Shown piece by piece: positions 21,626-61,447 of a stretch of 64,000 bases of DNA. Numbering within the stretch: position 1 is the stretch's first letter; each line of letters begins with the position of its first letter. The position numbers and the translations under genes were made by a program. This stretch comes from a virus: UHGV virus genome UHGV-0312702. One strand, 5' to 3'. A model generated the notes under the pieces. It made no database searches. It was not told the DNA's origin and was given only the letters and a program-made list of their open reading frames with translations.

Positions 21626-21636
21626 ATTCTTAATGA

Positions 21637-21709: not shown

Positions 21710-21716
21710 TCAAAAC

Positions 21717-21791
21717 TGGTGTCGTAGACAGGATTCGAACCTGCGAGCAACTGATTGAAGGTCAGGTGGCTAACCATTTGCCTTCTACGAC
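21717..21791 (-). tRNA. tRNA-Glu (anticodon TTC), C at position 33
   Basis: Perfect acceptor GTCGTAG/CTACGAC, anticodon stem CTGA/TCAG with loop CCTTCAA. Confidence 0.55.
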
Positions 21792-21792
21792 A

Positions 21793-22149: not shown

Positions 22150-22166
22150 AGTAACCCCTTTAAATT

Positions 22167-22243
22167 TGGTCTCTGTTGGAGGACTTGAACCTCCGGCCTT
22201 ACCGCCCCAAACGGAACGCTCTACCAAGCTGAGCTAAACAGAG
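22167..22243 (-). tRNA. tRNA-Pro (anticodon TGG)
   Basis: Perfect acceptor CTCTGTT/AACAGAG, D-arm GCTC-AGCTTGGTA-GAGC, anticodon loop TTTGGGG, T-arm GGAGG-TTCAAGT-CCTCC. Confidence 0.75.
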
Positions 22244-22270
22244 ATAAACTTTTCAAACTCTATGTAACCA

Positions 22271-27500: not shown

Positions 27501-27551
27501 TATCTTCATAGGCTCCTTCGGGAGCCTTTTTTATTTTCTAAGGAGAAAACT

Positions 27552-28968: not shown

Positions 28969-29549
28969 TGCCCGAAGAGCAACAAAGTATCACTCCACAA
29001 GTGACATTAGTACAACATTTTGGAAACATTGAAGGGTGTATTGCACTTTTTCAACCAAACATCAATTCTCCTGCAAAAGTCTGTAAGTTGACTATGAATG
29101 TCAACAATATCAGTGTTTGTCTTGTTGATGAAGTCCAATACTTCAAATTCAATGACAGAGAGGTTGATGCTGCACTATTGAAGTATCGAGCAAGCCTCGA
29201 AAAAGACATTGACCATAAAGAGCTTGTAACACTGTTTGGTGACCTACACAAGCTTCTTGAAAAGGTTATGAAGCGTACATACTACATGAACAACGGTTCA
29301 ATTATCACAACTTTGATTTCACCATGTATCTCAGAACCTATCCTGACTGATGACGGTGGGTATTACGTGGTAGCATCAGCAGATTCTGACTGGTGGATGA
29401 AAAATACAGCACTGAAGACGGTTATTGAGGCTATTCGTGAACACATACCTTCATTCAGCCCGTGGAAAGGTAAAGGTGACGAATTTATCGCACTTTTGAG
29501 TGAAGAGAGCAACAAACGCAGTGCATTACTGCCTAAAAAATACTCTTGA
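28968..29549 (+). CDS. hypothetical protein, 193 aa
   Basis: ORF. Confidence 0.45.
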   Translation: MPEEQQSITPQVTLVQHFGNIEGCIALFQPNINSPAKVCKLTMNVNNISVCLVDEVQYFKFNDREVDAALLKYRASLEKDIDHKELVTLFGDLHKLLEKVMKRTYYMNNGSIITTLISPCISEPILTDDGGYYVVASADSDWWMKNTALKTVIEAIREHIPSFSPWKGKGDEFIALLSEESNKRSALLPKKYS

Positions 29550-29632
29550 CCGAGTATACAGTACTGATTATGATGGGAGCTATCGAGAGGTAGTTCCCTT
29601 TTTAGTTTCTAGAGAAACGTTACGGTGAAAGA

Positions 29633-31170: not shown

Positions 31171-31732
31171 TGGTGTGATAGATATGGAAAAAGATAACTT
31201 AAAAGATGTTGAAGGTAACTATCTAGTCCTTGATTGGAGTGATGCTCAAGAAGCACTCTCTGAAGAAAGTCTTGACAGATTAAAACAGATTGTTTTTGCA
31301 GTACGGGGTTACAGAGAAGTTAAAAATGGTAAAGACCCACTTGAAGGAGTCTTTGTAGAGAAATCTTATCCGTTCTATGAAGACACTTTGCAGAAAGTCA
31401 AGATGTACTTTAGACAGAAGAACCGTAAAGTGGTCACTATGGTATCTCTTGGTGGACAGAGTATGTCTGTGATGGAAGATATCAACCCTAAGAGACCGAG
31501 TAAAGGTGTTTGTATAAAAACCACAGGTCATGAAGAGTACATCTCAGTGGATGATTTTAGTTCATTCTGTAGTGGTTCTTGTGTCTTTAATGGTTTTCAC
31601 TATGATATCCGAGTGTACCCAATCAAGGGAGATGATATCATGATGCAGGTATTCGATAATAACAATGGATTTACTCATTTTTATCAGACAACCAAGTCAT
31701 CGCTGAAGACAGTTCTGGAAACACTGATTTAA
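31139..31732 (+). CDS. hypothetical protein, up to 197 aa (true start may be the internal ATG near 31184)
   Basis: ORF; first ATG overlaps previous gene by 32 nt. Confidence 0.4.
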   Translation: MQFQLTKFYDNGVIDMEKDNLKDVEGNYLVLDWSDAQEALSEESLDRLKQIVFAVRGYREVKNGKDPLEGVFVEKSYPFYEDTLQKVKMYFRQKNRKVVTMVSLGGQSMSVMEDINPKRPSKGVCIKTTGHEEYISVDDFSSFCSGSCVFNGFHYDIRVYPIKGDDIMMQVFDNNNGFTHFYQTTKSSLKTVLETLI

Positions 31733-31742
31733 AATATCTTAA

Positions 31743-31776
31743 GAGCCTCCTTAATCGGGGGCTTTTTAATTTTTAT
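31743..31776 (+). terminator. rho-independent terminator closing the + strand block
   Basis: AGCCTCC-TTAATC-GGGGGCT hairpin followed by TTTTTAATTTTTAT. Confidence 0.6.
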
Positions 31777-33389: not shown

Positions 33390-33638
33390 TTAGTTGTAAC
33401 CTTGTTTGCTGTAGTATAGGGAGACGATTTTTTCTCCCCAGTAGTGGTAGTGATATTCCTCGTTTATGGCTTCTTTTACAGCATCCTTCCAAAAGTCATC
33501 GGTAGGGTTATAATCTGGTAGCACCTGCTGAATCAGCATTTTGATAAGGTCAAAGGTGTTATCTGTGCCACCGATATCGAATTTTGCATCAAGTTCGTGG
33601 CAGCCATAAGCATTAACAGTTACGCGGATAGTTGACAT
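33390..33638 (-). CDS. hypothetical protein, 82 aa
   Basis: ORF preceded by conserved leader cassette. Confidence 0.45.
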   Translation of the reverse strand: MSTIRVTVNAYGCHELDAKFDIGGTDNTFDLIKMLIQQVLPDYNPTDDFWKDAVKEAINEEYHYHYWGEKIVSLYYSKQGYN

Positions 33639-33705
33639 AATTTAGATTCTCCAGTTTAGGACTTTATTTAGTGGGAAGGTTAATCCCTCCCCGTTGATTA
33701 GTAAT

Positions 33706-33969
33706 TTACTGCATGTTGGCGTATGTTGCAAGCCTTTTTTCGTTGTATTTTGTCAGAATCTCACAAGATAAAACATCATATTTTGTAACCGCTTTGCCTT
33801 TGTCGAGGTCAAAGAATCCGAACGCTTTACCGTCTTTGAATCCGACAACCTCGTAAGACTCTTTGATGATTTCACCATTGAACAAATCACTTTCGATACG
33901 GTGGAATAGTGCTACATCCTCTTTGTCGGATGCAATTTGTAAAAGTGTGGTCAGTTCGACGTGTTCCAT
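33706..33969 (-). CDS. hypothetical protein, 87 aa
   Basis: ORF preceded by conserved leader cassette. Confidence 0.45.
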   Translation of the reverse strand: MEHVELTTLLQIASDKEDVALFHRIESDLFNGEIIKESYEVVGFKDGKAFGFFDLDKGKAVTKYDVLSCEILTKYNEKRLATYANMQ

Positions 33970-34030
33970 TTTGAATCTCCAGTTTAGGATTTTATTTAGT
34001 GGGGGAGGTCATCCCCCGTTGATTGACAAT

Positions 34031-34561
34031 TTACAGATTTTTGATTGTCTCGTCAATATCTTTTTCAATATCTTTTAAAGTTTTTTCTAAGTTCTTGATA
34101 TTAAACGTTAAACCTTCACCGAGAGTCTTAGAATAACCGCTAGGACGTAAACCATATAGCTCGATTTCTTCCACTTCAAAGAGGTTAACAGTCCAACCGC
34201 CTACGCCATAGGCTGAAGCAACAGTATTTGCAGGTGCGTTGTAAAACTTGTTCAAATTATGAATAGAACGTTCATAAGCCATTTTATAGCTATTTAAAAG
34301 GTTTTTAACGTGGCTGTGAACGTTTTTACACTCATCTAAGTAAAGACCTAAAAACATCGGGAGAAGTTCCGCGACAGCTTGCATAAAGTGAGAGACTACC
34401 ACGGTTGCAACATTACGACGATGAACGTAATAAGCCCCGTTTCCTGATTTGGTAATGGTTGCAAAGTGTACCCCATTACAACGGAATTCATAGGTATCTT
34501 TAACAGGCTTAGACATTACATTATTTGAACGAATATAGTTGATAGCTTTGAACTTGTTCAT
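34031..34561 (-). CDS. hypothetical protein, 176 aa
   Basis: ORF preceded by conserved leader cassette (CTAGGAGATTCTAAA then ATG). Confidence 0.5.
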   Translation of the reverse strand: MNKFKAINYIRSNNVMSKPVKDTYEFRCNGVHFATITKSGNGAYYVHRRNVATVVVSHFMQAVAELLPMFLGLYLDECKNVHSHVKNLLNSYKMAYERSIHNLNKFYNAPANTVASAYGVGGWTVNLFEVEEIELYGLRPSGYSKTLGEGLTFNIKNLEKTLKDIEKDIDETIKNL

Positions 34562-34630
34562 TTTAGAATCTCCTAGTTTAAGGACTTTATTTAGTGGGGA
34601 AGGTCATTCCCTCCCCGTTGATTAGTAATT
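34562..34630 (-). promoter_or_regulatory. conserved leader cassette, family B
   Basis: Near-identical copies upstream of genes starting at 33638, 33969, 34561, 35126, 36701; each has a GGGAA-TGACC-TTCCC hairpin, a CACTAAATAAAG box and a GGAGA RBS. Confidence 0.5.
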
Positions 34631-34784
34631 TACTTGTTTTGATAGTTGATTGCAAGCAATTTTTTAAGTTTATCTATAAAGAATCTTTTAAGTAAATCCC
34701 TTTTAGATAAACCCCCTCGAACAAATGTACTATTGTCAAGGGGTATCGTCAAGTAATTTTTTAAAGTTTTTTGTAAGTTATTGA

Positions 34785-35126
34785 TTAACTGATGAATATT
34801 TTTTCAGGTTTTACATAGCTGATACGCTGGCTTTTTAGCAGGTCATCCCAGATTAGCGCGGCAATATGAGAATAACCGGATTCACGTAAGAGCTTCATTG
34901 CTTTACTTCTCGTTTCAAAACGGCTTGCGTAGTACTCGCTATTCAGTGTCGTTTTATTCCCTTCGTTATCTGTATGGATGATTTGCATCACTTGAAAGGG
35001 GCTGACATCCTCGCCTTTGTTCCACTGCTCAAAGTATTTTAGGCACTGCATAGGTGACATCTTATCACTGACTTGAGTTGACCAAGATGAATCTTCTTTA
35101 TTGGTAATTACAGTTACATAAGCCAT
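34785..35126 (-). CDS. hypothetical protein, about 113 aa
   Basis: ORF-track start at 35192 lies inside the conserved leader cassette; ATG at 35126 has the conserved RBS spacing. Confidence 0.45.
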   Translation of the reverse strand: MAYVTVITNKEDSSWSTQVSDKMSPMQCLKYFEQWNKGEDVSPFQVMQIIHTDNEGNKTTLNSEYYASRFETRSKAMKLLRESGYSHIAALIWDDLLKSQRISYVKPEKIFIS

Positions 35127-35216
35127 TTTAGAATCTCCTAGTTTAAGGACTTTATTTAGTAGGGAGGTTATTGCCTCCCCGTTGATTGGCAATTTACAGA
35201 CTTTTATCAGGCTTGT

Positions 35217-35450
35217 CTAGTCTTTTTCAATGATAATTTCATATTGACCATCGACACTGTCAAAATAGACGCCGTCTTCATCTTCTGTCTTAAAGTAGCA
35301 TTGAATATCATCACTGGCGGGATAGTCTTGTCTTGCTATCTGGCAAACTTGAATAGCATTTTCTTTACTCCCTGTAAACTCCTCAAGCCCTTTAAAATCA
35401 CATGAATGACCATTACAAATAGAAAGGATAAGATAAACGGTTGTAAGCAT
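35217..35450 (-). CDS. hypothetical secreted/lipoprotein-like protein, 77 aa
   Basis: N-terminal hydrophobic segment ending LSICNG, Cys-containing. Confidence 0.4.
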   Translation of the reverse strand: MLTTVYLILSICNGHSCDFKGLEEFTGSKENAIQVCQIARQDYPASDDIQCYFKTEDEDGVYFDSVDGQYEIIIEKD

Positions 35451-35513
35451 GATTTAAGCCCTTTAAATGGCCCTGTATGGGCCTTAAGTTGGAAGTTGGT
35501 GTCTTTGTACTGA

Positions 35514-36077
35514 TTAACCTAAAAAGTCTTTTAAATTGCGCTCTGTGATGTTTGCCGTGATTTTATCCAGCAAGTCACAAAACACGGAACTATCACCGCT
35601 ATTCTGTACAATTTTCGCCATACTTAACAAATCATCGTCAACATAGCCTAAATTGCGGTTAGTTGCATCTGGTACAAAGAAAGGTGCATACATCGCACTA
35701 AATTTCGTCGAGTGAAGGCCAATAATCCAATTTTTATCAAAGTGTCCGGTAAAGCTGGCGATATCGCTCATGTTGTCACAAGAATAATCATCCTCTAGCT
35801 CTTCCTCTGGGATATCCATCTCAATGACAATTACGTCCTGCGTTTCCATTTGGAAAGCTGCCGTAATAAGCCCAGATTCTAAAGCGTTTTGAATGCAGCG
35901 TTCACGAATGTAAGAATCTTCCTCATCTTCCAGACATTCCGTTTTGATAATCTTGTTCATTGGGTAAACGTAGAAACAATCATCCATGTAGGAGCAGTTC
36001 CAGATTCCTTCTGGCTTGTCACCACCATTCAGCAAGTTTACAAAGTTTTTGAGGGTAGTGCCGTGATAGCATTTCAT
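35514..36077 (-). CDS. hypothetical highly acidic protein, 187 aa
   Basis: ORF; Asp/Glu-rich (for example DIPEEELEDDYSCDNMSD). Confidence 0.5.
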   Translation of the reverse strand: MKCYHGTTLKNFVNLLNGGDKPEGIWNCSYMDDCFYVYPMNKIIKTECLEDEEDSYIRERCIQNALESGLITAAFQMETQDVIVIEMDIPEEELEDDYSCDNMSDIASFTGHFDKNWIIGLHSTKFSAMYAPFFVPDATNRNLGYVDDDLLSMAKIVQNSGDSSVFCDLLDKITANITERNLKDFLG

Positions 36078-36078
36078 T

Positions 36079-36162
36079 TTTGAATCTCCAGTTTAGGATT
36101 TAGTGGTAAAGCTCTTTATCTGGGGCTTAAGATATCAACTTTTAAGCCCCCTGTAAAGTACT
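36079..36162 (-). promoter_or_regulatory. conserved leader cassette, family A
   Basis: About 85-nt element repeated almost verbatim at 36412-36503, 37210-37295, 39071-39158, 39417-39502, 39884-39972: 9-bp hairpin GGGGCTTAA...TTAAGCCCC, CACTAAATCC box, TAAACTGGAGATTCAAAA then ATG. Confidence 0.55.
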
Positions 36163-36411
36163 TTATTTAACTTTCTTTGAGAAAATTAGTTTAACTGCAA
36201 CCGTAGGAATCTCGTCAGCGCTTGTAACCAGCATTACTTTTTGGGTAACCAACTTATAACCGTTCTTTGCAGCATATGCGGTAAAACGGTTAACATTGTA
36301 ACTATAAGTTTTTGGTGTGCTATCTGGCATGTGGTAAAGAAAAGGTTTACCCAAATTTTCTTCTTGTGTCAACAGTCGGCAGGTATCAGGGATATTGAAA
36401 TAGTTCATCAT
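36163..36411 (-). CDS. hypothetical protein, 82 aa
   Basis: ORF preceded by family A cassette. Confidence 0.45.
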   Translation of the reverse strand: MMNYFNIPDTCRLLTQEENLGKPFLYHMPDSTPKTYSYNVNRFTAYAAKNGYKLVTQKVMLVTSADEIPTVAVKLIFSKKVK

Positions 36412-36503
36412 TTTTGAATCTCCAGTTTAGGATTTAGTGGTAAAGCTCTTTATCTGGGGCTTAAGATATCAACTTTTAAGCCCCCTGTAAAGTACTTTAT
36501 CAG
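36412..36503 (-). promoter_or_regulatory. conserved leader cassette, family A copy
   Basis: Near-identical to 36079-36162. Confidence 0.55.
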
Positions 36504-36701
36504 TTATTTTTTGACAACTTTTAAAACTGCAAGATAACCTAAGCAATAAGAATCACCGAAGAGAGTTCTGCCCATGAAAGAATCCTCTTTGATATCCTTT
36601 GCAGTGACAGTTTTTTCTACGCCGTGGGAAAGGACTACATCACCGACTTTGATGTCTTTGATGTGTGTTGTTTCAATGGTTAAGCCGTTAATAATAGCCA
36701 T
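36504..36701 (-). CDS. hypothetical protein, 65 aa
   Basis: ORF preceded by family B cassette. Confidence 0.4.
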   Translation of the reverse strand: MAIINGLTIETTHIKDIKVGDVVLSHGVEKTVTAKDIKEDSFMGRTLFGDSYCLGYLAVLKVVKK

Positions 36702-36804
36702 TTTAAAATCTCCTAGTTTAAGGACTTTATTTAGTGGGGAAGGTCATTCCCTCCCCGTTGATGTGTAATTTAGCCTATCTAAAAATCAGTGTCAATAATT
36801 TTTT

Positions 36805-37209
36805 TTAGAGTTCTGCGTAAATTGCATCACAGATATTACGGAAGTCATGATTTGACAAATTACGTTGTAACCAAGTGGCGAAGAAATCAGCGATTGCAAA
36901 ATTAGCATCATACTCGACAGATAGCCACACTTTAACAGCAAATCGGAACATTTTCAAGTCTAACTCTTTATTCATTACCTTAGATTTGCCTAACATGTCG
37001 GACATCTCATATTGTGCACCGTCTAGCGTGATACCTGCTGCAACGTCAGACAATGAGTTTTTTACGTTTTCAACGTCTAAGATAACACTTTGAATCTTCC
37101 CGATAATGTTGTGCAATGTTTCATCCGGTGCTGATGATGTAATAACATTAATCCGGTTAACGGTCAAACGTGCTTTTAAAATTGATAACTCACGGTTATT
37201 AATAGCCAT
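36805..37209 (-). CDS. hypothetical protein, 134 aa
   Basis: ORF preceded by family A cassette. Confidence 0.45.
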   Translation of the reverse strand: MAINNRELSILKARLTVNRINVITSSAPDETLHNIIGKIQSVILDVENVKNSLSDVAAGITLDGAQYEMSDMLGKSKVMNKELDLKMFRFAVKVWLSVEYDANFAIADFFATWLQRNLSNHDFRNICDAIYAEL

Positions 37210-37295
37210 TTTTTAGTTCTCCAATTTAGGATTTAGTGGTAAAGCTCTTTATCTGGGGCTTACTTTATCGAACTATAAGCCCCTTGTAAAGTACT

Positions 37296-37568
37296 TTATA
37301 CTAAATGCAGCTTTTTACCTTTTACTATGATGTAACTAGATGCGCTATTGCTGCATACATCTTGGTAAATTCTGCGCAAACGCCCTTCATAGTGTACTTT
37401 CCAACTGGTTGGAATCTTTTTCCCGTATCCTGTAGCAGTTTTTTGGAGTCCTGCAACTTGCCAATCCAAAATGTGCTGTTCAGCTTGTAAATCCTCGAAG
37501 TGCATTACACCGTTCACATAGTGGCGTAGGGTTACGTTTAAAGTGCGACCGTTGTTAGTAGTGTACAT
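37296..37568 (-). CDS. hypothetical protein, about 90 aa
   Basis: Start moved from 37610 to the ATG at 37568, which has the conserved RBS context. Confidence 0.4.
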   Translation of the reverse strand: MYTTNNGRTLNVTLRHYVNGVMHFEDLQAEQHILDWQVAGLQKTATGYGKKIPTSWKVHYEGRLRRIYQDVCSNSASSYIIVKGKKLHLV

Positions 37569-37841
37569 TTTAAAAGCTCTTAGTTTAAGGGTTTTATTTT
37601 GACAGTTCACTAATTAAGACATCAAAGATTATATCATTATCTGCTACAGTTGCAACACCAGTGATATAATCAATTTCTAGGATAACAACAACTTTCGTAC
37701 ATAAACCGTCATCTATATCATTCCAGACAACTTTATCACCTGCACAAAACATTTTCAGAATCTCCAGTTTAGGACTTTATTTAGTGGGGAAGGTCATTCC
37801 CTCCCCGTTGATGTGTAATTTAGCCTATCTAAAAATCAGTG

Positions 37842-38174
37842 TCAAACACTTTGTTTTCGTTTGCTCAATTCTTGAACAATTACAGCGTAGTAGTCTTTTA
37901 AGTCACTGATATTTAAAGCATTTATTAGTGAATTATAATCATCGACTAACTGAAAATCATCTTTGAAGATGTCACTTATCTGATAGGTGTTAGCTTTGTA
38001 TCTGAAGCTCATTTCTAACCGTTTTATTTGTTCATCACTTAAACGCTCCAGAAAACTCATTACAAGGCTATTATTGACCTGTTGCGTGATTGCCTTACTT
38101 GCCAGATTGTAGGCGCTGTACGCCTTATATAGCGCCATAATAGCAATGATTGCAGTGACTCCCATCATTAACAT
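37842..38174 (-). CDS. hypothetical membrane protein, 110 aa
   Basis: N-terminal hydrophobic segment; AAGAGG RBS. Confidence 0.45.
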   Translation of the reverse strand: MLMMGVTAIIAIMALYKAYSAYNLASKAITQQVNNSLVMSFLERLSDEQIKRLEMSFRYKANTYQISDIFKDDFQLVDDYNSLINALNISDLKDYYAVIVQELSKRKQSV

Positions 38175-42978: not shown

Positions 42979-42999
42979 TTAACAATCTCCTGAAATGAA

Positions 43000-43024
43000 A
43001 AAGGCTCCCGAAGGAGCCTGTATC
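43000..43024 (-). terminator. rho-independent terminator
   Basis: AGGCTCC-CGAA-GGAGCCT hairpin; on - strand followed by TTTTTCATTT. Confidence 0.5.
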
Positions 43025-43030
43025 TTAACC

Positions 43031-44727: not shown

Positions 44728-44785
44728 TGGTTCTCCTGTTTAGTTTATCGTGACAACAATTATACAGCACTCTGCACAAAATACA

Positions 44786-44815
44786 AATAAAAAAGGCCGC
44801 CGAAGCAGCCTTTTA
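44786..44815 (-). terminator. rho-independent terminator downstream of rIIB
   Basis: On - strand GGCTGC-TTCG-GCGGCC hairpin followed by TTTTTTATTTG. Confidence 0.55.
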
Positions 44816-44827
44816 AGAAATTACTTA

Positions 44828-45937: not shown

Positions 45938-46016
45938 CTTATTACTCTCTCTTGTCAGTTAATAAATCATTTTGTGAGGCTATTCTAAGGGGCTTCAAAG
46001 CCCCTTGTCAAACATT

Positions 46017-48905: not shown

Positions 48906-48917
48906 AGTCTTCTCCAG

Positions 48918-48946
48918 AAATTAAAAAGGCTCCCGTAGGAGCCTCT
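48918..48946 (-). terminator. terminator-like hairpin between the Nampt-like gene and the next gene
   Basis: AGGCTCC-CGTA-GGAGCCT; on - strand followed by TTTTTAATTT. Confidence 0.5.
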
Positions 48947-48958
48947 TATCATATACTT

Positions 48959-50740
48959 TTAAAGCTGCTTGTCAATATTATTTCGAATATCACCAAGAGA
49001 TGTGTAACCATACTGCTCAGAATCACTAAAGACTAAGCGTAGAGCACAAGCTGGATGTTCAAGTGCATCTGCAAAGCTTTGGAATCCATAGCCATCTACA
49101 GCTTTCAGTTTATCACCATCCCACATAGGTGCTACACCACCAAAAGCAGACTTCTTAACACCACTATCTGTTTTAGGGTCTTTTGCAAGCATAATCTCTT
49201 TACCACCAATGCTTGCAAGAGTTGCTTTAACAGCAAATGCAAAGGTGTCACGAGTCATGTACTGGTAAGTGTAAGAGCCTACGCCAAACACTACGTTAGA
49301 GCTTGCAAAACCCATTTCATACAGACGCTTCAGGATTTCGTTTGCACGTTCCAGTGTGATAGAGTCACCATAGATAAGGCCAATATGTTCATCCAGTACC
49401 TTAAAACCTTTGGAGTTGATAGTCCCTCCGAAGATGTTATACAGAGTCTTAATAGCTCCATCAATCTCTGCTACAGGACGTGTTACAACGTTTGCAGAAC
49501 CAACCATATAAGCATTTTTCAACATCACTGTATCGGCAACTTCAAAGTCTTCTCGGTCAACAACCATTTCGTAGCCTTCTGACAGTAGCCATCCAGCAAT
49601 ACCATAGCTGATGTTTTCAAGCTTCATATTCAGAACAGCATTTAACATTGTGTCGCTGGCTTCCAGCTTACTAAGGTGCTCATAATAAGCCTTTTTAGCG
49701 CACTCTAAGTGGATTGCTTTATAACCTGTGACAATATGTACAGGGTCTCCAGAGTCAGGACGAATTACCAGTTTACCGTCACGTTCCATAATCTCTTTGC
49801 GAAGTGCTGGTAAGATTTCTGACACAGTTCTCCAGAAGTTATAAGTATCTGAAACAACACTTGCAATACCAGTCGGGTAAGTCTCTGTTAAGAAACGACG
49901 GAAGGTCTGCAACTCACCTTTAAAGCGTCTTTCCTCTTCAATCAATTCATTACCACCTTCCCAAGCAATGTTTGCACACATTACAGAGTGTTCAGTGGCT
50001 GGTACAGAACCACCAATATCAGAGATTGGGTAAGACTGTCCGTAGATGCGTTTAGCTGTATATACAGCAGGGAAGCTATCAGTTCCTTTAAAGCTGGTCA
50101 AGTGGCCTACAGCATTAAATGCGTCATCAGTAAAGCCTGACATACCACGCATAGCAAAGTCATGGCACTGATAAGGTAAATGCAAGTCATTGTCACAAGT
50201 AAGGTCAGCCCACTTCTTACAGATACGTTTGTAGTGCAATGCAATAGTTGCAATGGTACAAGCCTTCCAAATTTCAGCAGAGAAAGAATCTTCCAGATAC
50301 CCCGCTACCCAATGGAAGCCTGAAACAGTATTCTGGAAGACAATCATTGGGACACGCATAGGGACAACTGTGCCTTCTTCTACAGCGTATACTTCAACTG
50401 GCAGATAACCTAAGTCGTGAAGTGCTTCCCAATGTTCTCGACCAATAGCATCTTTACCCAGAACACCGTTCATGACTTCTAAGATTTCGTCAATTGCTTC
50501 TTTTTTGTCACGCTCAAAGAAAGTGGCGTTCCAATGGTCTACCAAGTAATCTTTAACAAAGCGTTGAATACCAAAAGCTACTACACCGTCAATTGCTAAG
50601 GGGCTGTTAAACCATTTGTCACTACGTGGTGTCAGGTTGAACATCAAGTACTCTGTTGCGCTAGGATACTGGTAAACATGACCAGATTTGTAAGCATCTG
50701 CATTCAAACCTGCTGGTACTGCATAAAGTGATTTAGTCAT
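48959..50740 (-). CDS. nadV: nicotinamide phosphoribosyltransferase-family protein (Nampt/NadV-like, or the Nampt-homologous Namat), 593 aa
   Basis: Length and overall similarity to Nampt-family proteins from memory; paired with a Prs-like gene immediately upstream. Confidence 0.7.
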   Translation of the reverse strand: MTKSLYAVPAGLNADAYKSGHVYQYPSATEYLMFNLTPRSDKWFNSPLAIDGVVAFGIQRFVKDYLVDHWNATFFERDKKEAIDEILEVMNGVLGKDAIGREHWEALHDLGYLPVEVYAVEEGTVVPMRVPMIVFQNTVSGFHWVAGYLEDSFSAEIWKACTIATIALHYKRICKKWADLTCDNDLHLPYQCHDFAMRGMSGFTDDAFNAVGHLTSFKGTDSFPAVYTAKRIYGQSYPISDIGGSVPATEHSVMCANIAWEGGNELIEEERRFKGELQTFRRFLTETYPTGIASVVSDTYNFWRTVSEILPALRKEIMERDGKLVIRPDSGDPVHIVTGYKAIHLECAKKAYYEHLSKLEASDTMLNAVLNMKLENISYGIAGWLLSEGYEMVVDREDFEVADTVMLKNAYMVGSANVVTRPVAEIDGAIKTLYNIFGGTINSKGFKVLDEHIGLIYGDSITLERANEILKRLYEMGFASSNVVFGVGSYTYQYMTRDTFAFAVKATLASIGGKEIMLAKDPKTDSGVKKSAFGGVAPMWDGDKLKAVDGYGFQSFADALEHPACALRLVFSDSEQYGYTSLGDIRNNIDKQL

Positions 50741-50785
50741 CTTTTAGTCTCTCTCAAAATGGGGCTTATAAGCCCCTATAAACTT

Positions 50786-52465: not shown

Positions 52466-52516
52466 TTTATCTCCAAAATAAAAAGGGAACCTTTACAGTC
52501 CCCTTATAGTATCTGT

Positions 52517-52837
52517 TTACTGAGCTACTTTCAAGATGCTTGTGAATGAAATCTCACTCTCATCCATAAATTCTTTTGCTTCTCCAGTAACTTTTACAAA
52601 GTTATCTAGGCAGATAATTTTCTTATCTTTCTTGCTGTAGGTTAGCTTAACCTTTTCAATATCTTTCTTAGAACTTTTCTCTTCATTAAAGAGTTTTACA
52701 GCTTCTTTGAATGGTAGGTATGAACCATCATCGTCGCTAATAAAACCTGTGCCGCAATAGTAGAAGTTATATTCTTTAGCCATAAACTGGCACAGTACGA
52801 AAATCTGTAATTTGCGAGTGTTATAAACTTTGCTCAT
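52517..52837 (-). CDS. hypothetical protein, 106 aa
   Basis: ORF. Confidence 0.4.
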   Translation of the reverse strand: MSKVYNTRKLQIFVLCQFMAKEYNFYYCGTGFISDDDGSYLPFKEAVKLFNEEKSSKKDIEKVKLTYSKKDKKIICLDNFVKVTGEAKEFMDESEISFTSILKVAQ

Positions 52838-54334: not shown

Positions 54335-54488
54335 TTTAACTTATCTCTCAATTCACAATAAGAAAGTCCTAAAAAGAACCCTAGCAAGACAGAACCTATG
54401 AACAACCCAATAATACTCTCTGCCATATCTAACATCCAATAAAAAAGGTGATGTAAGCCTATCAAGACCCACATCACCTTGTCAAGTT

Positions 54489-56633
54489 TTACATGGAGAC
54501 TCTATCACGAATCTCAGCAATTTTTGCATCGTTCATTCGGGATTCACCTTTAATCTTAGTCCACCCAAGATAACCGCACACCCTGTTAATCACAGAGATA
54601 TCGTGTGAATGGCAAACCTCACATTCTTCAACGTCAGCCTTTGGTCTGTTACCACAATGCTCACAGATTGCTAAGTCAAAGTTAAGTCCCTGATAAAAAC
54701 CTTTCAACATCCCTCTTGTAATACAACTTTTAAGTGCTATTAAGTTTTCTGGGTTAGCTACCCTGACATACTGGATTCTCCCACCTCTACAGATATGGAA
54801 GAATGGCTCTTCTAAGTCCTGCTTCTCAAATGGTGAGATGTCTGCTGCGACATTCATATGGAAACTGTTTGTAAAGTATTCCTTATCAGAAACACCTTTG
54901 ATAACACCAAACATATCCCTGAACTGTTTTAGCTGAGTTCCACAAAGTGATTCTGCTGGAGTGCCATATACGGCATATAAGAAGCCATCTTCATCTTTAA
55001 ACTCTTCAGTTTTCATGTTGATGTATGCCAGAACATCATATGCAAAACTGTAGCTTCCAACTTCATGAAGTCGTTTACCTTCAGCAAGAACAGACAACTC
55101 ATCAAGCGCAGTAACCCCAAAAGAAGCTGTGAAAGATTTCACGATATCCCAGCCAACCTTGTCAGTAGATTTCTTAGTCCCTTTGTACAGACCACCTTGT
55201 GTGAATGCAAGAGGGTTAGAACTTGCTGGCATATTAGCAATCATTTCGTAGCGTTTCTTGTGGAAGCTACGAATCATCTCTAGGTACTTATCAAGCTCTT
55301 TCCAGAAATCTAAACCATTCTCTTTAGAGTACTGGTAAATCATTGGCAAGTTCAAAGATACAGCACCAATGTTAGCACGACCAACGTAAAACTCTTCCCC
55401 ATCCTCATTAAGATATGGTGATAAGAAGGCTCTGCAACCCATCGGTGAAATTACCTTACCAGAACGCTCAAAAGCCTCTGCTACAGCACCATGACCAGAC
55501 ACACTTAAGAAGTCTGGGTACATTGCTTTAGAGCAACATTCAATAGCTTTACTGTACAGTTGGCCTTGACAGATATTTTCATCATGTCTCTTCTGGTCAT
55601 AAATATAAACCAGTTTAGGGAATACAACAGGTTTTTTGCTCTTACCTTGTCCATTCATACGAACATCTAGGAGAGTACTTGCAATCATGTATTGTAGTCG
55701 ATTATCTTCATTAGACATATCTGAGTCAAGTAACCCAAATGTTAAAGTTGTAAATGCAAAATCACCACGGCTGCAAGGTACAGTGTTTAGTTTCATCTCA
55801 AGTGACTGAAAACCTTGAGTCAGTTCAATCTGTAGCTGCTCCATTACATAATTATAATAATGCTCTTTAGGAATACCATAAGATGATGCTTTCTCAGCAT
55901 GATAGCGTAGAGACTTCTTAGCATATGGTACAAGTACCTTATCAATCTCTGCTAAAGTAAAACCACCAAATTGCTGTGCAGTTGCTGAAAGTACTACGTC
56001 ACCAATAACCTGTAAGGCTGACAGTACAGATTTAGGTTCACAGTACTCAATGCCGGACATTTCAAAGCCACCTTTCAGTACTTTACCAATGTCAAACAGG
56101 CAACAGTTGATACCACCAAAAATCAGGTCTCTTAAATCGTGGATATAGATAAAGCCTTTTTCAATGGCTTCAAGTTCCTCTGGTGTTAGGTGATACTGCT
56201 TAAAGATTTCTTTAGTCAGGTAACCACGGATAATTGAACCTTTCGTAGAAATTAAACTACTGTCAAAGTTAGCATTTTCACGGTCACCTAAGAAGAGTGT
56301 GTCTCTAGTCTTCTGGTAAAGCTCATCCCAATTTTGAGCAACTTCTTTACGGTAATTTCTGTATGTTGAGTAAGACTCATAAATCTCGTGATTAACTTCT
56401 GCCAAAGCACCTTCAACAATGCTGTGAATATCATTTACCGAGATAAGCAAATTATTCTGCTTAGTGGACTTTACCAGAATCCTCATAAATGCTGACTCAA
56501 GAGCTTGGGTAACATCTGGTGGAAGTTCTTTATACCCAACCCTGTTAGCTGACTTAGTTACTGCTGCTAAAACTTTTTTGATATCAGGTTCTTCAAGTGA
56601 GCCATTCTTTTTAATAATCTGTACTTTGTTCAT
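54489..56633 (-). CDS. nrdD: anaerobic (class III) ribonucleotide reductase, 714 aa
   Basis: C-terminal glycyl-radical motif RVCGYLG preceded by a Cys-rich zinc ribbon (CEHCGN ... CEVCH). Confidence 0.85.
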   Translation of the reverse strand: MNKVQIIKKNGSLEEPDIKKVLAAVTKSANRVGYKELPPDVTQALESAFMRILVKSTKQNNLLISVNDIHSIVEGALAEVNHEIYESYSTYRNYRKEVAQNWDELYQKTRDTLFLGDRENANFDSSLISTKGSIIRGYLTKEIFKQYHLTPEELEAIEKGFIYIHDLRDLIFGGINCCLFDIGKVLKGGFEMSGIEYCEPKSVLSALQVIGDVVLSATAQQFGGFTLAEIDKVLVPYAKKSLRYHAEKASSYGIPKEHYYNYVMEQLQIELTQGFQSLEMKLNTVPCSRGDFAFTTLTFGLLDSDMSNEDNRLQYMIASTLLDVRMNGQGKSKKPVVFPKLVYIYDQKRHDENICQGQLYSKAIECCSKAMYPDFLSVSGHGAVAEAFERSGKVISPMGCRAFLSPYLNEDGEEFYVGRANIGAVSLNLPMIYQYSKENGLDFWKELDKYLEMIRSFHKKRYEMIANMPASSNPLAFTQGGLYKGTKKSTDKVGWDIVKSFTASFGVTALDELSVLAEGKRLHEVGSYSFAYDVLAYINMKTEEFKDEDGFLYAVYGTPAESLCGTQLKQFRDMFGVIKGVSDKEYFTNSFHMNVAADISPFEKQDLEEPFFHICRGGRIQYVRVANPENLIALKSCITRGMLKGFYQGLNFDLAICEHCGNRPKADVEECEVCHSHDISVINRVCGYLGWTKIKGESRMNDAKIAEIRDRVSM

Positions 56634-56681
56634 TATTGCCCCTTTACATGCTAAAAAGGTCTCCGAAGAGACCCTTTCATT

Positions 56682-56888
56682 TTAAATCTTTTTAGAAAAC
56701 TTTGAAACGAGTTTTCTCAGTTTTTCAGTGATGCCTAGCTGTATCTCTAATATTTCAAATATTACCCATAGTAACATGGCTCCAAACAATGAACCTTGTT
56801 CAAAATCAGTAAATAGGTTAACAACAAGCATACCAATCACAATGGCTGGTGCATCAACAACCAAGCCTTCCCAAATGCGTTTAAGCAT
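56682..56888 (-). CDS. hypothetical small membrane protein, 68 aa
   Basis: ORF, hydrophobic. Confidence 0.35.
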   Translation of the reverse strand: MLKRIWEGLVVDAPAIVIGMLVVNLFTDFEQGSLFGAMLLWVIFEILEIQLGITEKLRKLVSKFSKKI

Positions 56889-57123
56889 TATTCACCTCTG
56901 CCATAAAATTCTGTAGCGTTCCAACAGGTTTTAGGTTTTGTCCATCAGTTTTCATGATGAATGGCATCTGGCGAACTGGCATCTGTGCAATATCCATCAG
57001 GTCTGATAGCTCATAGTCCTGTCCTAACATTCTCACAACATGGTCAATACCACGAGCTTTTGCAAAATTCTTTGCAGTCTCACACTGAGGGCATCCAGTT
57101 TTGGAGTAAATTATATAAGTCAT
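56881..57123 (-). CDS. glutaredoxin/NrdH-like redoxin, 80 aa
   Basis: CPQC active-site motif near N-terminus; sits between nrdB and nrdD. Confidence 0.65.
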   Translation of the reverse strand: MTYIIYSKTGCPQCETAKNFAKARGIDHVVRMLGQDYELSDLMDIAQMPVRQMPFIMKTDGQNLKPVGTLQNFMAEVNNA

Positions 57124-58196
57124 TAAGGAACCTCTAAAAATCCACTATTCAAATCATCTACAACAGTATTCAATAGGTACGCACCGTTCTGTTGCTCCTG
57201 ATTAGCATTCTGCTCTTTGTCAATTTCCATCTTCTTAATCATATACTTCAAAGGTGGTTCTTTAGGAGCTACAAAATCTCTGGGAATGCCAAACATATCA
57301 TACAGTGGGGCAGCATTATAGTAAACCCACTCATGAAGAAGCTTTGTATTTAAACCAACTACAGCACGTCCTTCGGAGAAGATATAATACGACCATTTTT
57401 CTTCACTTTCAACTACTTCATCTAGGATTACTTTAATCTCTGGAAGAATTTGTTGGAAAGCTTTTTGCCACTCATCATCTCTTAAAGTTTCTTTTAAAAC
57501 TTCAATATCAATTTTGGTGTGAAGGATTTCATCAAGCATAATCTTCTGGACAGCTTGAGCAATACCCTGAAATTTATCCTGAGCATCAAGTGCAAAGGTA
57601 CATGCAAAGGATGCCATGAAGGAGATACCTTCAAGTGCAGTCACTGCAAATAGACCTTTTAGAATCACTTTATGGAAGTGTAAAGGGTCTTTGTCCAGAA
57701 GTGAGTCACGGACATAACTCAGTCGGTAGTTTATACCTTCATCCAGTAATTCTTCAAGAACACGATTCACAGTTTTTAATCGGTCTTGTACAGCAACGTT
57801 CTGGTTAATCTCATCTAAGATTGTTTCAGGATTTTTAATACATTGCCTTACAATCTCCGAGTAAGTAAGAGCGTGTAGGTTTTCAATCTCAGACTGCTTC
57901 ATAATTGCAGTTGCATAAATGTCATCAGAGATAAATGGTGCAAAGGCAAATGCCAAGCTCTTAGCAACTTGGGTGTCTGCTTCCCACTGCCACTTAAGAA
58001 TCTCAAGCATTACACCTGACATTGATGCTGGCACACTCTCAAAATCAAGACGTGATTGTTCAAAAGGGAACTCATCCTCTGACCAGTCTTGCGCTTTTTG
58101 TTGTTTATATAGTTCAAAGATTTTTGGGTAGTGCTTGTTAAGTGAGTCGAATGTCTTTCTCTCACCACCTAAAAAGATTGGGTGTTGGTTAATCAT
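57123..58196 (-). CDS. nrdB: ribonucleotide reductase class I small subunit
   Basis: Iron-ligand-type ExxH motifs (ENLHALTYSE, LDEILHTK); start taken at the ATG at 58196 (MINQHPIF), which overlaps the upstream stop as ATGA, rather than the ORF-track start at 58256. Confidence 0.75.
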   Translation of the reverse strand: MINQHPIFLGGERKTFDSLNKHYPKIFELYKQQKAQDWSEDEFPFEQSRLDFESVPASMSGVMLEILKWQWEADTQVAKSLAFAFAPFISDDIYATAIMKQSEIENLHALTYSEIVRQCIKNPETILDEINQNVAVQDRLKTVNRVLEELLDEGINYRLSYVRDSLLDKDPLHFHKVILKGLFAVTALEGISFMASFACTFALDAQDKFQGIAQAVQKIMLDEILHTKIDIEVLKETLRDDEWQKAFQQILPEIKVILDEVVESEEKWSYYIFSEGRAVVGLNTKLLHEWVYYNAAPLYDMFGIPRDFVAPKEPPLKYMIKKMEIDKEQNANQEQQNGAYLLNTVVDDLNSGFLEVP

Positions 58197-58534
58197 AGCG
58201 TGATTTCTCCTTTCTTTATCATTTCTAAGGCTTGTTTTCGGTCTAGGACTTCCCAATTTTCTTTGTTAAACATGTCATAGGGTCTTGCATAGATTTTACC
58301 ATCTGCTGTAGAGATGTATGACACACCATCGACCCATGAGTCATCATTTTGTTTTATCATCATATCTGTGCTACTTACATAGTACAACGTTTTCCGAGGT
58401 TTGTAGAGCAGATAAATTGGCCACTCATGATTTGCTATTAAGTCCTTCATACTCTCTCCAAAGTTATTTTTAGAGGGTCTTTTACGACCCTCATAGTTAT
58501 TAAAACTAAACACCACAACCCTCGCAATAAGCAT
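58193..58534 (-). CDS. hypothetical protein between nrdA and nrdB, 113 aa
   Basis: ORF. Confidence 0.4.
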   Translation of the reverse strand: MLIARVVVFSFNNYEGRKRPSKNNFGESMKDLIANHEWPIYLLYKPRKTLYYVSSTDMMIKQNDDSWVDGVSYISTADGKIYARPYDMFNKENWEVLDRKQALEMIKKGEITL

Positions 58535-60740
58535 CTTGCAGTGCAGACTTACCTACACCGATGCGACTGTTAAGGTAGTACATGGTTTTCATACCTACCG
58601 AGTTGGCATAAATCATGTACTTCAAAGCTTGAGCCAATGATACCTTCTTAGACTTTGCATAGTCAACATAGAAGTCTGAAGAGATAGCTTGACCAGTGAA
58701 CTTTTGAACAATTGCATAACAATCAATCAGGTCAAAGGTGTCAATGCCCCAAGCAATTTCATATACATACTTCAACTCTTCATAATCTGGAACAATAAAT
58801 AGTACGTTACCAGTTGCAGACTTTTTAGTTAAAATAAAGTCACGAATTGGGTACAAACCATTAGTCGTATTAGTTGCCAGTGAAGAACTCTCATTAGGCA
58901 TATAAGCCTCAAGTACAGAGTTACGGATTCCACCGTTCTCTTTAATACGTTGTGCTAAGTCATCCCAATCATATCTTAGTTTTGCATCATGCTTCTCATC
59001 AATCTTCTTGTTAGCTGTCTTTGGAGGAACCCAGCCTTCAGGATACTTAGTGAACTTCATATACTCAGGCACGCCACGCTCTTTAGCAAGTCTTAAAGAA
59101 GCTTCGTGTAAGTAGTAAGAGTGCATCTCAGCAAGCTCATGAAGCTTTGTCTTACCTGCTCTTGAAGAGTAGTTCACGTAGTTTTTCGCAAGGTAATGAG
59201 CCACATTTGTAAGGCCAATCCCAACAGAACGACGCTTCTGAACATGGTTACGCATCGACGGATACGGATAATCCATAAGGTCAATAACGGAGTCAACCAT
59301 TGCAAGAGCATAATAAGCAACGTCAGCGTATTCATCTTCTGAAATTCTCCCTGCAACCAAACTAGCTAGGAAGCAAAGAGCTACCTCACCATCCTCTTTC
59401 ACAGCATCGTCTCTGTAGAGGTCTGTCTCTTTCTCAAACCCATACACTGGCAATACGATTTCCATACAAAGGTTTGACATCTTCAAAGGCTCTTTAAATG
59501 GTGTATGTGTATTTGCATTATTCGTGAAGAATGGATACACACGACCTGTTGCATAACGCTGTTGAATAAACAGTTTAGCAATTTCACGAGCCTTTACTCT
59601 TCTGTGCTTAACACCTGAATGAACTGCGTGACCAACAGCCATAGCAAACTCATCAGCAGATGCTGTGTAGAACATGTCATAGAGCTTTGGTGCATCCTTG
59701 TAAGAGAATAGCAACCAGTCTGTATCGTACTGGACACACTGCCAGAAATAATCGTTTGTACCGAATGAGTAGTCCATCTCGTTAATACGCTTAGAAGGAA
59801 CCGTTGTAGGGTGCTTCAAACGCAGTAAATCTTCAATCTGCGGGTCTAGAGCAGTGTAGAAGTTGTTAGCTGAACCACCACGACTCTTCTGTTTATTTGC
59901 CTCTACAGATGAACGTACAAGCTTGTAATAAGGTAACTTACCCATATGCTCAATAGTATTTTGACGGATACCATCACCAATAGTGCGAGTCTCCATCAGC
60001 ATACCAATACCAGCTTGCTTTGTAGTCATGTCATAAGCAACCTTTGCAGCAATACCAAGTGATTCGGCAGTATCATTCGCCTTAATTAAACAGCATGACG
60101 CATAACCTGATTTAGTGGCTCTTAAACCATTCAGATAAGGTGTAGGAGCGTTAATCTTCAGGTCAGATAGGTAAGTGTACAGCTTGATAACATCTTGCAG
60201 TCTACGGTGCTTTGGTTGCTTCTCAAAGGCTTTCATAGCCATACCCATAAACATAAATTGTGGTGACTCAAAAAGTCTTCCCGTTTTAATATCACGGATA
60301 CCATACTTGTCTCTGAACTGTTTCAATACTGCATAACCGTAAGAGATATCTTTTGAGTGCACAATGTAACCTTGCAGGTATTCAAGCTCTTCCTGTGAAT
60401 AATCCATTTTCTCCCAAAGTCCTGCTCTCTCCATATTTTTAACGAAGGTAACCAGCGTAGGAACCTTAGTAAAGCCTCCAAAGGCTTCTTTGTAGATAAT
60501 CCCTAGAAGTAGCCGTCCAGCCATGTCTGAGTACTCTTGAGTTTGTTTATCAACACAAACATCAATCATGGCTTGGTGCATCTCTTTTGTAGTGCAACCC
60601 TCATAGACACGTTTCATGGCTTCCATAGTGACTTCTGACCAGATAATTCCACGCTTGTCTGCCCATGATGCCCACTTATTCAGTCTTTCTGGGTCAAAGC
60701 TTACTACTGTACCGTTTGATTTTTTAATTGTCTTAATCAT
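58506..60740 (-). CDS. nrdA: ribonucleotide reductase class I large subunit, 744 aa
   Basis: Active-site motif SNLCMEI; size and adjacency to nrdB. Confidence 0.85.
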   Translation of the reverse strand: MIKTIKKSNGTVVSFDPERLNKWASWADKRGIIWSEVTMEAMKRVYEGCTTKEMHQAMIDVCVDKQTQEYSDMAGRLLLGIIYKEAFGGFTKVPTLVTFVKNMERAGLWEKMDYSQEELEYLQGYIVHSKDISYGYAVLKQFRDKYGIRDIKTGRLFESPQFMFMGMAMKAFEKQPKHRRLQDVIKLYTYLSDLKINAPTPYLNGLRATKSGYASCCLIKANDTAESLGIAAKVAYDMTTKQAGIGMLMETRTIGDGIRQNTIEHMGKLPYYKLVRSSVEANKQKSRGGSANNFYTALDPQIEDLLRLKHPTTVPSKRINEMDYSFGTNDYFWQCVQYDTDWLLFSYKDAPKLYDMFYTASADEFAMAVGHAVHSGVKHRRVKAREIAKLFIQQRYATGRVYPFFTNNANTHTPFKEPLKMSNLCMEIVLPVYGFEKETDLYRDDAVKEDGEVALCFLASLVAGRISEDEYADVAYYALAMVDSVIDLMDYPYPSMRNHVQKRRSVGIGLTNVAHYLAKNYVNYSSRAGKTKLHELAEMHSYYLHEASLRLAKERGVPEYMKFTKYPEGWVPPKTANKKIDEKHDAKLRYDWDDLAQRIKENGGIRNSVLEAYMPNESSSLATNTTNGLYPIRDFILTKKSATGNVLFIVPDYEELKYVYEIAWGIDTFDLIDCYAIVQKFTGQAISSDFYVDYAKSKKVSLAQALKYMIYANSVGMKTMYYLNSRIGVGKSALQDAYCEGCGV

Positions 60741-60786
60741 TTTTGAATCCTACAGATGAAAAGAGCCTCCGAAGAGGCTCCCTAGT

Positions 60787-61122
60787 TTAAATCTTGAAAA
60801 TTTGCTCATTCTGCCACATATCGTAAAACTTATCACTTACCTTTGTGACTGAAGAGGTGTGCATACAGTTCAGGAACCATGATGGCGCACTAGCATCCAT
60901 AATTGTTTCAAGTTTTTGTGTAACGTTCACATCCATGTCTGCAACAACGTAATTACCTCTCATCTTGCAAACAATTCTTCCAAACAAGATTGCACTTCTA
61001 CCTCTTCGGTCATCACAGTACATAACTGTGTCTCCGTGCTTAACATCTTGTCCGATGCTATCAACACCTAACTTAGCACCTGAGATAATGTCATCATAAG
61101 ATAGCTTTTTTGCTTTAGACAC
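60787..61122 (-). CDS. hypothetical protein, 111 aa
   Basis: ORF. Confidence 0.4.
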   Translation of the reverse strand: MSKAKKLSYDDIISGAKLGVDSIGQDVKHGDTVMYCDDRRGRSAILFGRIVCKMRGNYVVADMDVNVTQKLETIMDASAPSWFLNCMHTSSVTKVSDKFYDMWQNEQIFKI

Positions 61123-61447
61123 GGTATTTCTCCAAGTTTCTTTTCAGATACAGCCAACCATAATCAGTCCTTTCTACACCCATAAAGAGTGGAGCCATCA
61201 CAACTTTACCAAAAGTATTTCTGTGTTGGCAGATTTCAAAAGAATACTCTTTCTCAATATCAATCCCGTATTTGTACAGGACTGCTTTTAAAACTTGTTC
61301 ATTGTCCAGAAGTGTATCTGGAGTCTCACCATATTTTTCTAGTAACGGGTCATTCATAAACACCGTCATAGAGATATTGTAGTTTGAGAAGTGGCTCTTC
61401 TGAGCCACACCTTCTTTATTAATGTTCTGTGAATCCATTATAACCAA
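61115..61447 (-). CDS. hypothetical protein, 110 aa
   Basis: ORF. Confidence 0.4.
   Translation of the reverse strand: MVIMDSQNINKEGVAQKSHFSNYNISMTVFMNDPLLEKYGETPDTLLDNEQVLKAVLYKYGIDIEKEYSFEICQHRNTFGKVVMAPLFMGVERTDYGWLYLKRNLEKYRV

Follow-up and report, generated by a model that had tools for sequence, protein, structure and literature searches.

Among the Rho-independent terminators predicted by TransTerm and MFOLD in bacteriophage Felix O1 are t111 (gagcctcttcggaggctctttt, -16.1 kcal/mol) and t116 (ggtctcttcggagaccttttt, -12.8 kcal/mol), given in Table 2 of Whichard et al. (2010, Viruses 2:710; PMC3185647) together with further UUCG hairpins, t2, t5 and t35. The same paper left open whether read-through or secondary promoters carry transcription past the terminators. 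We analysed a 64,000-nucleotide (nt) stretch of the virus genome UHGV-0312702 (the window), in which hairpins identical in sequence to t111 and t116 occupy the same positions, immediately upstream of the ribonucleotide reductase (RNR) genes nrdA and nrdD, respectively. The two hairpins are already known as these Felix O1 elements and belong to the cUUCGg terminator class. In the GenBank record of phage wV8 the nrdD-upstream hairpin is annotated as a Rho-independent terminator (79852-79867) and the nrdA one is not annotated, and the KhF3, Michonne and Mijalis records have a terminator feature in the matched nrdD-upstream region. We consider it probable that t111 and t116 are leaky intrinsic (Rho-independent) terminator-type hairpins that also protect the 3' ends of the mRNA upstream of them.

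Hairpins of the C(UUCG)G type in intergenic regions of T4 and other phages were reportedly found by Tuerk et al. in 1988 to be unusually stable, and UUCG tetraloops are said, from work of d'Aubenton Carafa et al. in 1990, to be over-represented in Escherichia coli intrinsic terminators. Phage C(UUCG)G hairpins are also summarised in a passage of PMC8948821. In the PeSLs (promoter-early stem-loops) of T4-type phages, a stem-loop lies between the -35 and -10 elements of a promoter or overlaps the -10 (PMC2839356; PMC4122927). The window is, as judged by similarity, the DNA of a Felixounavirus, a Felix O1/wV8-like myovirus: the 6.8 kb at 54400-61200 share 95-96% identity with Escherichia typing phage 1 (E. 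coli O157 typing phage 1), wV8 and numerous further Felixounavirus genomes, and 263 phage records match this stretch.

Both hairpins lie on the minus strand, which carries the genes of the 40-64 kb region, the RNR genes included. The nrdD-upstream hairpin (t116), GGUCUC-UUCG-GAGACC at 56658-56673, has a 6-bp core stem capped by a C(UUCG)G tetraloop, with its 5' arm GGUCUC at 56673-56668, the UUCG loop at 56667-56664 and the 3' arm GAGACC at 56663-56658. Flanking A/U and G.U pairs can extend it to 10-12 pairs (56652-56679). An A-tract lies upstream of the stem, and the tail UUUUUAGC, which contains only a short U-run, starts at the stem base; the U5 tract directly after the stem (56653-56657) is U5-U6 in all 29 related loci. 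Read along the minus strand, the gap consists of a TAA (56684-56682), AAUGAAAG, the hairpin, UUUUU, AGCAUGU, the Shine-Dalgarno sequence AAAGGGG (56645-56639), CAAUA and the ATG at 56633, which is 24 nt from the stem. The first-pass annotation, made from the sequence alone, had placed this hairpin at 56644-56670; hairpin, UUCG loop and T-run are all real, and its coordinates were a few nt off. Its interval for the nrdA-upstream hairpin (60759-60783), with a UUCG loop and a T-run before the ATG, is confirmed. This hairpin (t111), GAGCCUC-UUCG-GAGGCUC, has a 7-bp core at 60763-60780 (5' arm GAGCCUC at 60780-60774, loop at 60773-60770, 3' arm GAGGCUC at 60769-60763), extendable to 10 pairs (60760-60783). 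Its tail UUUUCAUC again starts at the stem base with a short U-run, a U4 tract (UUUUC, 60759-60762) that reads UUUUUC in a diverged group of relatives. The nrdA gap runs from a TAA (60789-60787) through ACUAGG, the hairpin, UUUU, CAUCUGU, AGGA (60751-60748) and UUCAAAA to the ATG at 60740, 22 nt from the stem.

These features are those of intrinsic terminators, namely a GC stem of about 5-14 bp with a loop of 3-8 nt, a U-tract at the stem base, and an orientation shared with, and a position downstream of, a stop codon. The core stems have 6-7 bp, including 4-5 G-C pairs, and the tetraloop is closed by C-G; on the RNA sense strand both hairpins read ...CUC-UUCG-GAG.... The fold of the nrdD hairpin is -12.7 kcal/mol (z = -3.9) and that of the nrdA hairpin -15.2 kcal/mol (z = -3.6), and in each case 0 of 200 shuffled sequences were as stable.

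The two hairpins are members of a family that is far more frequent in the window than expected by chance. With a minimum stem of 6 bp, the window has 4 perfect TTCG-loop hairpins against 0.11 expected (about 40-fold), a count reached by 0 of 300 dinucleotide shuffles; each of the four lies between genes, on the local sense strand. Further copies are AGGCUCC-UUCG-GGAGCCU followed by U4 at 43002-43019 on the minus strand (Felix O1 t5), the same hairpin followed by U5 at 27510-27527 on the plus strand (t35), and GGCUGC-UUCG-GCGGCC with one G.U pair and U6 after rIIB, at 44791-44814 on the minus strand (t2). Every UUCG copy in the window carries a U-run, which fits the terminator subclass of C(UUCG)G hairpins. 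The recurrences proposed by the first-pass annotation near 43000, 44786 and 48918 are real hairpins, at 43002-43019, 44791-44814 and 48924-48947 (minus strand); the last, however, has a UACG loop and is a related hairpin, directly preceded by a conserved TTGACA-N16-TATGAT promoter (48975-48948). A hairpin of another kind, GAGGGUC-GUAAAA-GACCCUC (58473-58492, minus strand, -12.6 kcal/mol), begins 13 nt after the nrdA stop and lacks a U-run. It is kept in 27 of 29 loci and replaced by GGGGGCU-GAAA-AGCCCC in the other two, and probably serves as a barrier to 3' exonucleases or a stability element, not as a terminator. The hairpins here are thus not all terminators, and having a U-run is specific to hairpins such as t111 and t116.

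Conservation was assessed across 31 IMG/VR loci for nrdD and 29 for nrdA. Together with its U-run (AAGGGTCTCTTCGGAGACCTTTTT), the nrdD hairpin is identical over 24 nt in 29 of 29 Felix O1-like loci, and it is invariant also at 83-88% NrdD identity, where the end of the upstream open reading frame (ORF) and the Shine-Dalgarno region have diverged. In two loci with about 50% NrdD identity (L031 and L032), as in the Hafnia phage Zyzzx, other terminator-like hairpins occupy this position before nrdD. Two versions of the nrdA stem exist, GAGCCUC/GAGGCUC and GGGUCUC/GAGACCC; they differ in both members of two base pairs, 100% of cells remain paired, and the difference traces to one lineage split. 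The core GGGTCTC-TTCG-GAGACC is common to the nrdA and nrdD hairpins of the diverged group. Covariation in t111 was considered as independent proof of the stem and is given little weight, as it amounts to one lineage split and two pairs, with possible replacement by a t116-type hairpin.

The loops point to selection acting on the RNA. Of 58 related hairpin copies, 57 have UUCG and a single strain has UUUG, whereas the loops of neighbouring hairpins (50761, 45987) vary freely, with up to 9 variants. These variants are often mutual reverse complements (loci L068-L098), as with TAAA/TTTA, TGAA/TTCA and TTGA/TCAA at 45987-46006 and 50761-50776, and at 48924-48947 the TACG loop is flipped to CGTA in two loci. 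From their sequence, such flips are the signature of palindrome-mediated template-switch inversion. No flip to CGAA was found at the UUCG hairpins in the 58 related copies. The retention of UUCG points to strand-specific selection on the RNA for the stability that this loop would add to short stems.

The genes around the hairpins suggest what the terminators would separate. The minus-strand nucleotide-metabolism cluster would be split into units by t111, t116 and a long terminator hairpin with U6 (54445-54480, minus strand), the latter an annotated terminator in wV8. The first unit would consist of upstream genes ending with a 111-aa ORF (60787-61122), which has no Pfam match and ends in a stop codon 6 nt upstream of the t111 core stem. 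The second would begin with nrdA (58506-60740; class Ia RNR alpha subunit, 744 aa, Pfam Ribonuc_red_lgC/lgN) and continue through the hairpin without a U-run, gp120, nrdB (57123-58256, assigned by Pfam), the glutaredoxin gene grx (56881-57123, also by Pfam) and a 68-aa ORF (56682-56888; a membrane protein in relatives' annotation), which ends in a stop codon 8 nt upstream of the t116 core stem. The third would be nrdD alone (54489-56633; anaerobic RNR, 714 aa, Pfam NRDD and ATP-cone), a single-gene unit because the long terminator lies directly 3' of it. All of these genes are on the minus strand. The first-pass annotation had raised the possibility that the hairpins are terminators of the upstream gene, and this is the best-supported of its proposals, given the stem anatomy, the U-runs, the position 6-8 nt after a stop codon and the published t111 and t116.

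When RNA polymerase meets such a GC stem and U-run, a fraction of the complexes would release and the rest would read through, and the hairpin, now 3'-terminal, would shield the upstream mRNA against 3' exonucleases. Transcription could reach nrdD by two routes, read-through of t116 and a weak sigma70-like candidate promoter that abuts the hairpin. For nrdA, no sigma70-like promoter (spacers of 16-18 nt) was found abutting the hairpin or between hairpin and ATG, so that read-through of t111 is the only visible route to this gene. This need for read-through fits the short U4 of t111. In addition, a ribosome at the stop codon 6-8 nt before the stem would mask the opening bases of the 5' arm and, under tight translation-transcription coupling, favour read-through. 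In Felix O1, semi-quantitative reverse-transcription PCR (RT-PCR) shows ORFs 111, 112, 114 and 115 peaking at 25 min and ORF 117 at 60 min (PMC3185647). This timing fits a t116 that separates differently timed units, if ORF 117 is nrdD, a correspondence drawn from the terminator names.

Several observations weigh against reading the hairpins as terminators, or at least as efficient ones. Since nrdA must be reached through t111, t111 is not a strong stop. The U-runs are short (U5 and U4, the nrdA one being UUCUC in wV8-type strains), and termination efficiency may be low as a result. A simple terminator scan of the window listed neither hairpin on the minus strand; this is because extension of the stems through G.U and A-U pairs consumes the U-run, and the core stems pass the scan rule. 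The two-sided changes in t111 are as likely, from the sequences, to reflect replacement or conversion by a copy of a t116-type hairpin as stepwise compensation. Phage Zyzzx has a 19-nt gap and no hairpin before nrdA, which means that the position upstream of nrdA is not conserved across the subfamily and is not a fixed feature of RNR regulation; the same phage carries a GGGGUCU-UUCG-AGACCCC hairpin after nrdA, at the place of 58473-58492. Finally, mapping of transcript 3' or 5' ends for Felix O1-like phages was not found in the literature searched, and termination at both hairpins is a prediction.

The proximity of the hairpins to start codons, from which the first-pass annotation had argued for additional roles in RNR expression, is generic in this compact genome and not specific to the RNR genes. 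Within 40-64 kb, genes overlap or abut, or are 45-100 nt apart, and nearly every gap of 45-100 nt holds a hairpin in the layout stop codon, hairpin, U-run, Shine-Dalgarno sequence, ATG. By hand tally there are nine such gaps: 42979-43030, 44728-44827, 45938-46016, 48906-48958, 50741-50785, 52466-52516, the 3' end of nrdD, 56634-56681 and 60741-60786. The gaps before nrdA (46 nt) and nrdD (48 nt) contain only a hairpin, a U-run and a ribosome-binding site, and it is because of this that the hairpins are 22-24 nt from the start codons.

A further property of the hairpins is that sigma70-like promoter elements abut them far more often than expected. The -10 element of a sigma70-like promoter ends between -6 and +2 nt from the stem at 6 of 16 sense-strand terminator-like hairpins (27510, 29575, 31741, 48924, 52483 and the nrdD hairpin), against 0.22-0.28 expected and 0 of 5000 controls. 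The composites span 27478-27527, 29546-29598 and 31706-31766 on the plus strand and 48924-48975, 52483-52534 and 56652-56706 on the minus strand; in another, at 45982-46011 (minus strand), the hairpin 45987-46006 sits inside the spacer of TTGACA-N18-TAGAAT. A strong sigma70-like promoter is joined to the stem-loop at 48924, 27510 (TTGACA-N17-TATCTT, 27478-27506), 29575 and 45987, whereas the nrdD hairpin has only a 9/12 match and the nrdA hairpin has none. Composite promoters are kept in diverged relatives (83-88% identity) while spacers and flanking genes change. The candidate at nrdD, TTCAAA-N16-TAAAAT (56679-56706, minus strand), has the upstream stop codon within its -10. It stops 5 nt short of the core stem, right next to the A-U/G.U extension of the helix, and its predicted start, at about 56674-56671, falls within the G run at the head of the 5' arm. 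Relatives with 83-88% NrdD identity have TTGAAA, TTGATA or TTGAGA, N17, and TAATAT or TAAAAT (9-10/12) at this position, despite diverged spacers, and in Zyzzx a terminator hairpin before nrdD precedes an extended -10 element, TGCTATAAT. Within the lineage of the window, the -35 is poor (3-4/6) and varies between strains, which leaves promoter function uncertain, and 9/12 matches taken alone are near background (56 found against 49 expected in 20 kb). Transcripts from this candidate promoter would, as modelled, either carry the hairpin at their 5' end or miss part of its 5' arm. The long terminator 54445-54480 opens with a conserved TTGACA and has a loop region, GGUCUUGAUAGGCUU, that is invariant across diverged relatives, and it is flanked on both sides by genes that vary from strain to strain; another promoter/terminator composite, and a module junction, may lie here. 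We found no description of promoter/terminator composites for Felix O1-like phages in the literature searched, and PeSL-like composites in Ounavirinae are the one part of these results that may be undescribed.

From this arrangement we tentatively suggest, as a possibility well short of an even chance, that Felix O1-like phages use dual-purpose cassettes. A -10 element, often including a stop codon, would abut a cUUCGg hairpin that terminates incoming RNA, and a new transcript would start at or within the 5' arm and either escape termination or wear the hairpin as a 5' cap. The element upstream of nrdD would be one of these cassettes and make nrdD an insulated unit, and the cassettes would also serve as PeSL-like recombination joints. 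It is unlikely that the hairpins act chiefly as 5'-terminal stabilisers, in which case RNR transcripts would begin at or inside the hairpin, by promoter or processing, and the UUCG hairpin would block the 5'-end-dependent decay by RppH and RNase E. The geometry at nrdD, its better promoter versions in relatives, the 6 of 16 abutting hairpins and the early-region promoters, which are followed after 10 nt by hairpins lacking U-runs, would all accommodate such a role, and the summary passage of PMC8948821 attributes stabilisation of T4 gene 32 mRNA to 5' CUUCGG hairpins. The absence of any promoter-like site at nrdA, the poor and strain-variable nrdD -35 and the background-level 9/12 match speak against it; moreover, with a full hairpin and U-run at about +1 to +21, such a transcript should itself be terminated, and a conserved U-run is superfluous for a 5' cap. 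A stabiliser of this kind would stand within about 0-4 nt of the mRNA 5' end, and a start at the hairpin is predicted for nrdD only. A stabilising role at the 5' end, also proposed in the first-pass annotation, is, on this model, conceivable for nrdD alone. It is rather improbable that the hairpins and adjacent promoters are primarily PeSL-like mobile cassettes, that is, recombination sites that shuffle gene modules, with termination secondary. The promoter-hairpin association is significant and conserved, the hairpin inside a promoter spacer (45987-46006) has one of the most common PeSL layouts, near-identical hairpins recur at several loci, flanking genes differ between strains at 48924, 52483 and 54445, and the reverse-complement loop flips amount to palindrome activity at the DNA level. 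At t111 and t116, however, gene order on both sides is unchanged in 29 of 29 Felix O1-like loci, t111 has no promoter, and hairpins of 16-24 nt contrast with a conserved PeSL interval of about 100 bp; such cassettes would, besides, be compatible with termination.

The regulatory readings fare worse. A dedicated, signal-responsive attenuator or riboswitch, by which RNR expression would follow dNTP or oxygen status, is highly improbable. The hairpins do lie directly upstream of nrdA and nrdD, and ORF 117 is later than ORFs 111-115 in the Felix O1 RT-PCR; but the same hairpin type precedes unrelated genes (43002, 44791, 27510, 48924), Zyzzx lacks the element before nrdA, and a leader of 46-48 nt has no room for an aptamer, a leader peptide or an alternative fold, its minimum-free-energy and centroid structures being the hairpin itself. 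A permissive Rfam search (E up to 1) of 54.0-61.5 kb gave no matches, and at gathering thresholds the whole window gave the tRNA cluster only. The NrdR box (ACACWATATWTWGTGT, up to 3 mismatches) had 5 matches against 7.3 expected, none near nrd genes. The attenuator of the first-pass annotation therefore survives in a weak sense, as a leaky terminator that nrdA transcription must read through, and fails in the stricter one, for which there is no antiterminator fold, leader peptide, Rfam family or NrdR box. Processing sites at which RNase III would cut polycistronic RNA before the RNR genes, another role proposed there, are extremely improbable and are rejected on helix length. Classic RNase III substrates have about 20 bp, and the enzyme normally needs about two helical turns. 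The present helices span 6-7 bp; weak A-U and G.U extensions, which consume the U-run, bring them to 10-12 bp at most, and folds of 74-76 nt show no longer-range pairing. The intercistronic position is reportedly that of T7 RNase III sites as well; nothing more specific to such sites was seen here. A switch based on sequestration of the Shine-Dalgarno sequence was also considered and dropped: that of nrdD is unpaired in the minimum-free-energy fold, and the weak pairing of the nrdA AGGA (z = -1.75) is not significant.

Other features of the region were noted in passing. A 10-mer, AAGATTTAAA (Lys-Ile-stop), ends both ORFs upstream of the nrdD and nrdA hairpins (56681-56690 and 60786-60795, minus strand); it has 4 copies in the window against 0.59 expected and is not conserved in the loci of diverged relatives. 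In the record of phage SP22 the match of the 111-aa ORF bears the putative product name 'late promoter transcription'. The listed ORF for gp120 (58193-58534) overlaps nrdA, and its true start is likely the ATG at 58449, which is preceded by GGAGAG. Several Felixounavirus genomes (loci L023-L030, L033 and L034) have an insertion of 742 bp or 316 bp in nrdD, such that the nrdD match spans 1501-4384 or 1501-3958 in carriers as opposed to 1501-3642 otherwise; the insertions, absent from the window and wV8, may be introns or of the homing-endonuclease type. An early ORFan region on the minus strand (about 33600-38000) repeats a module of TTGACA-N17-TAAATT, 10 nt, a GC-rich hairpin and the tail ACUAAAUA, with no U-run; examples of its hairpins are at 37786-37806, 36736-36756, 35161-35180 and 34001-34017, and by sequence they would start about 3-4 nt into the transcript. 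The matching small-ORF region of wV8 has annotated DR repeats, to which these modules probably correspond. At 16600-22250 (minus strand) there are 24 clustered tRNA genes, as expected in Felix O1-like phages.

The hairpins before nrdA and nrdD thus read as textbook-type phage terminators, and the correct label avoids mistaking them for riboregulators specific to RNR. What the analysis adds is the strand-specific selection for UUCG, the need for read-through at nrdA, and the promoters that abut hairpins far above chance in a PeSL-like manner. These comparative results offer a testable answer to the question raised in the Felix O1 paper of how transcription passes many terminators, and they are relevant to the engineering of Felix O1-type phages. 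Such phages serve in the typing and biocontrol of Salmonella and E. coli.

Comparison with described systems places t111 and t116 among known elements with specific differences. The E. coli ompA leader and the T4 gene 32 leader (Gorski et al. 1985, as cited in PMC8948821) carry a hairpin at the extreme 5' end, a likeness that would apply if the nrdD-abutting promoter fires; in contrast to the present hairpins, those stabilisers have no U-run directly after the stem. With the PeSLs (Arbiol et al. 2010, PMC2839356; Comeau et al. 2014, PMC4122927) the window shares a compact intergenic combination of sigma70-like promoter, terminator stem-loop and Shine-Dalgarno sequence, with 6 of 16 hairpins abutting a -10, one lying in a spacer, and variable flanking gene content at some. 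The window phage, however, is a member of Ounavirinae, its stems are mostly just downstream of the -10 and not upstream of it or in the spacer, t111 has no promoter and that of t116 is weak in the window's lineage, and its composites are predicted ones. The C(UUCG)G hairpins of T4, likewise a virulent coliphage, are intergenic and have the same C-G-closed UUCG loop on a short GC stem; T4 is not a relative, and the functions of its hairpins vary (terminator, 5' stabiliser, reverse-transcriptase stop). Like canonical E. coli intrinsic terminators, t111 and t116 have a GC stem, a tetraloop and a U-run that starts at the stem base, with an upstream A-tract in t116. Strong E. coli terminators have a U-run of about 7-8 as compared with 4-5 U here, and by analogy these shorter U-runs suggest partial termination.

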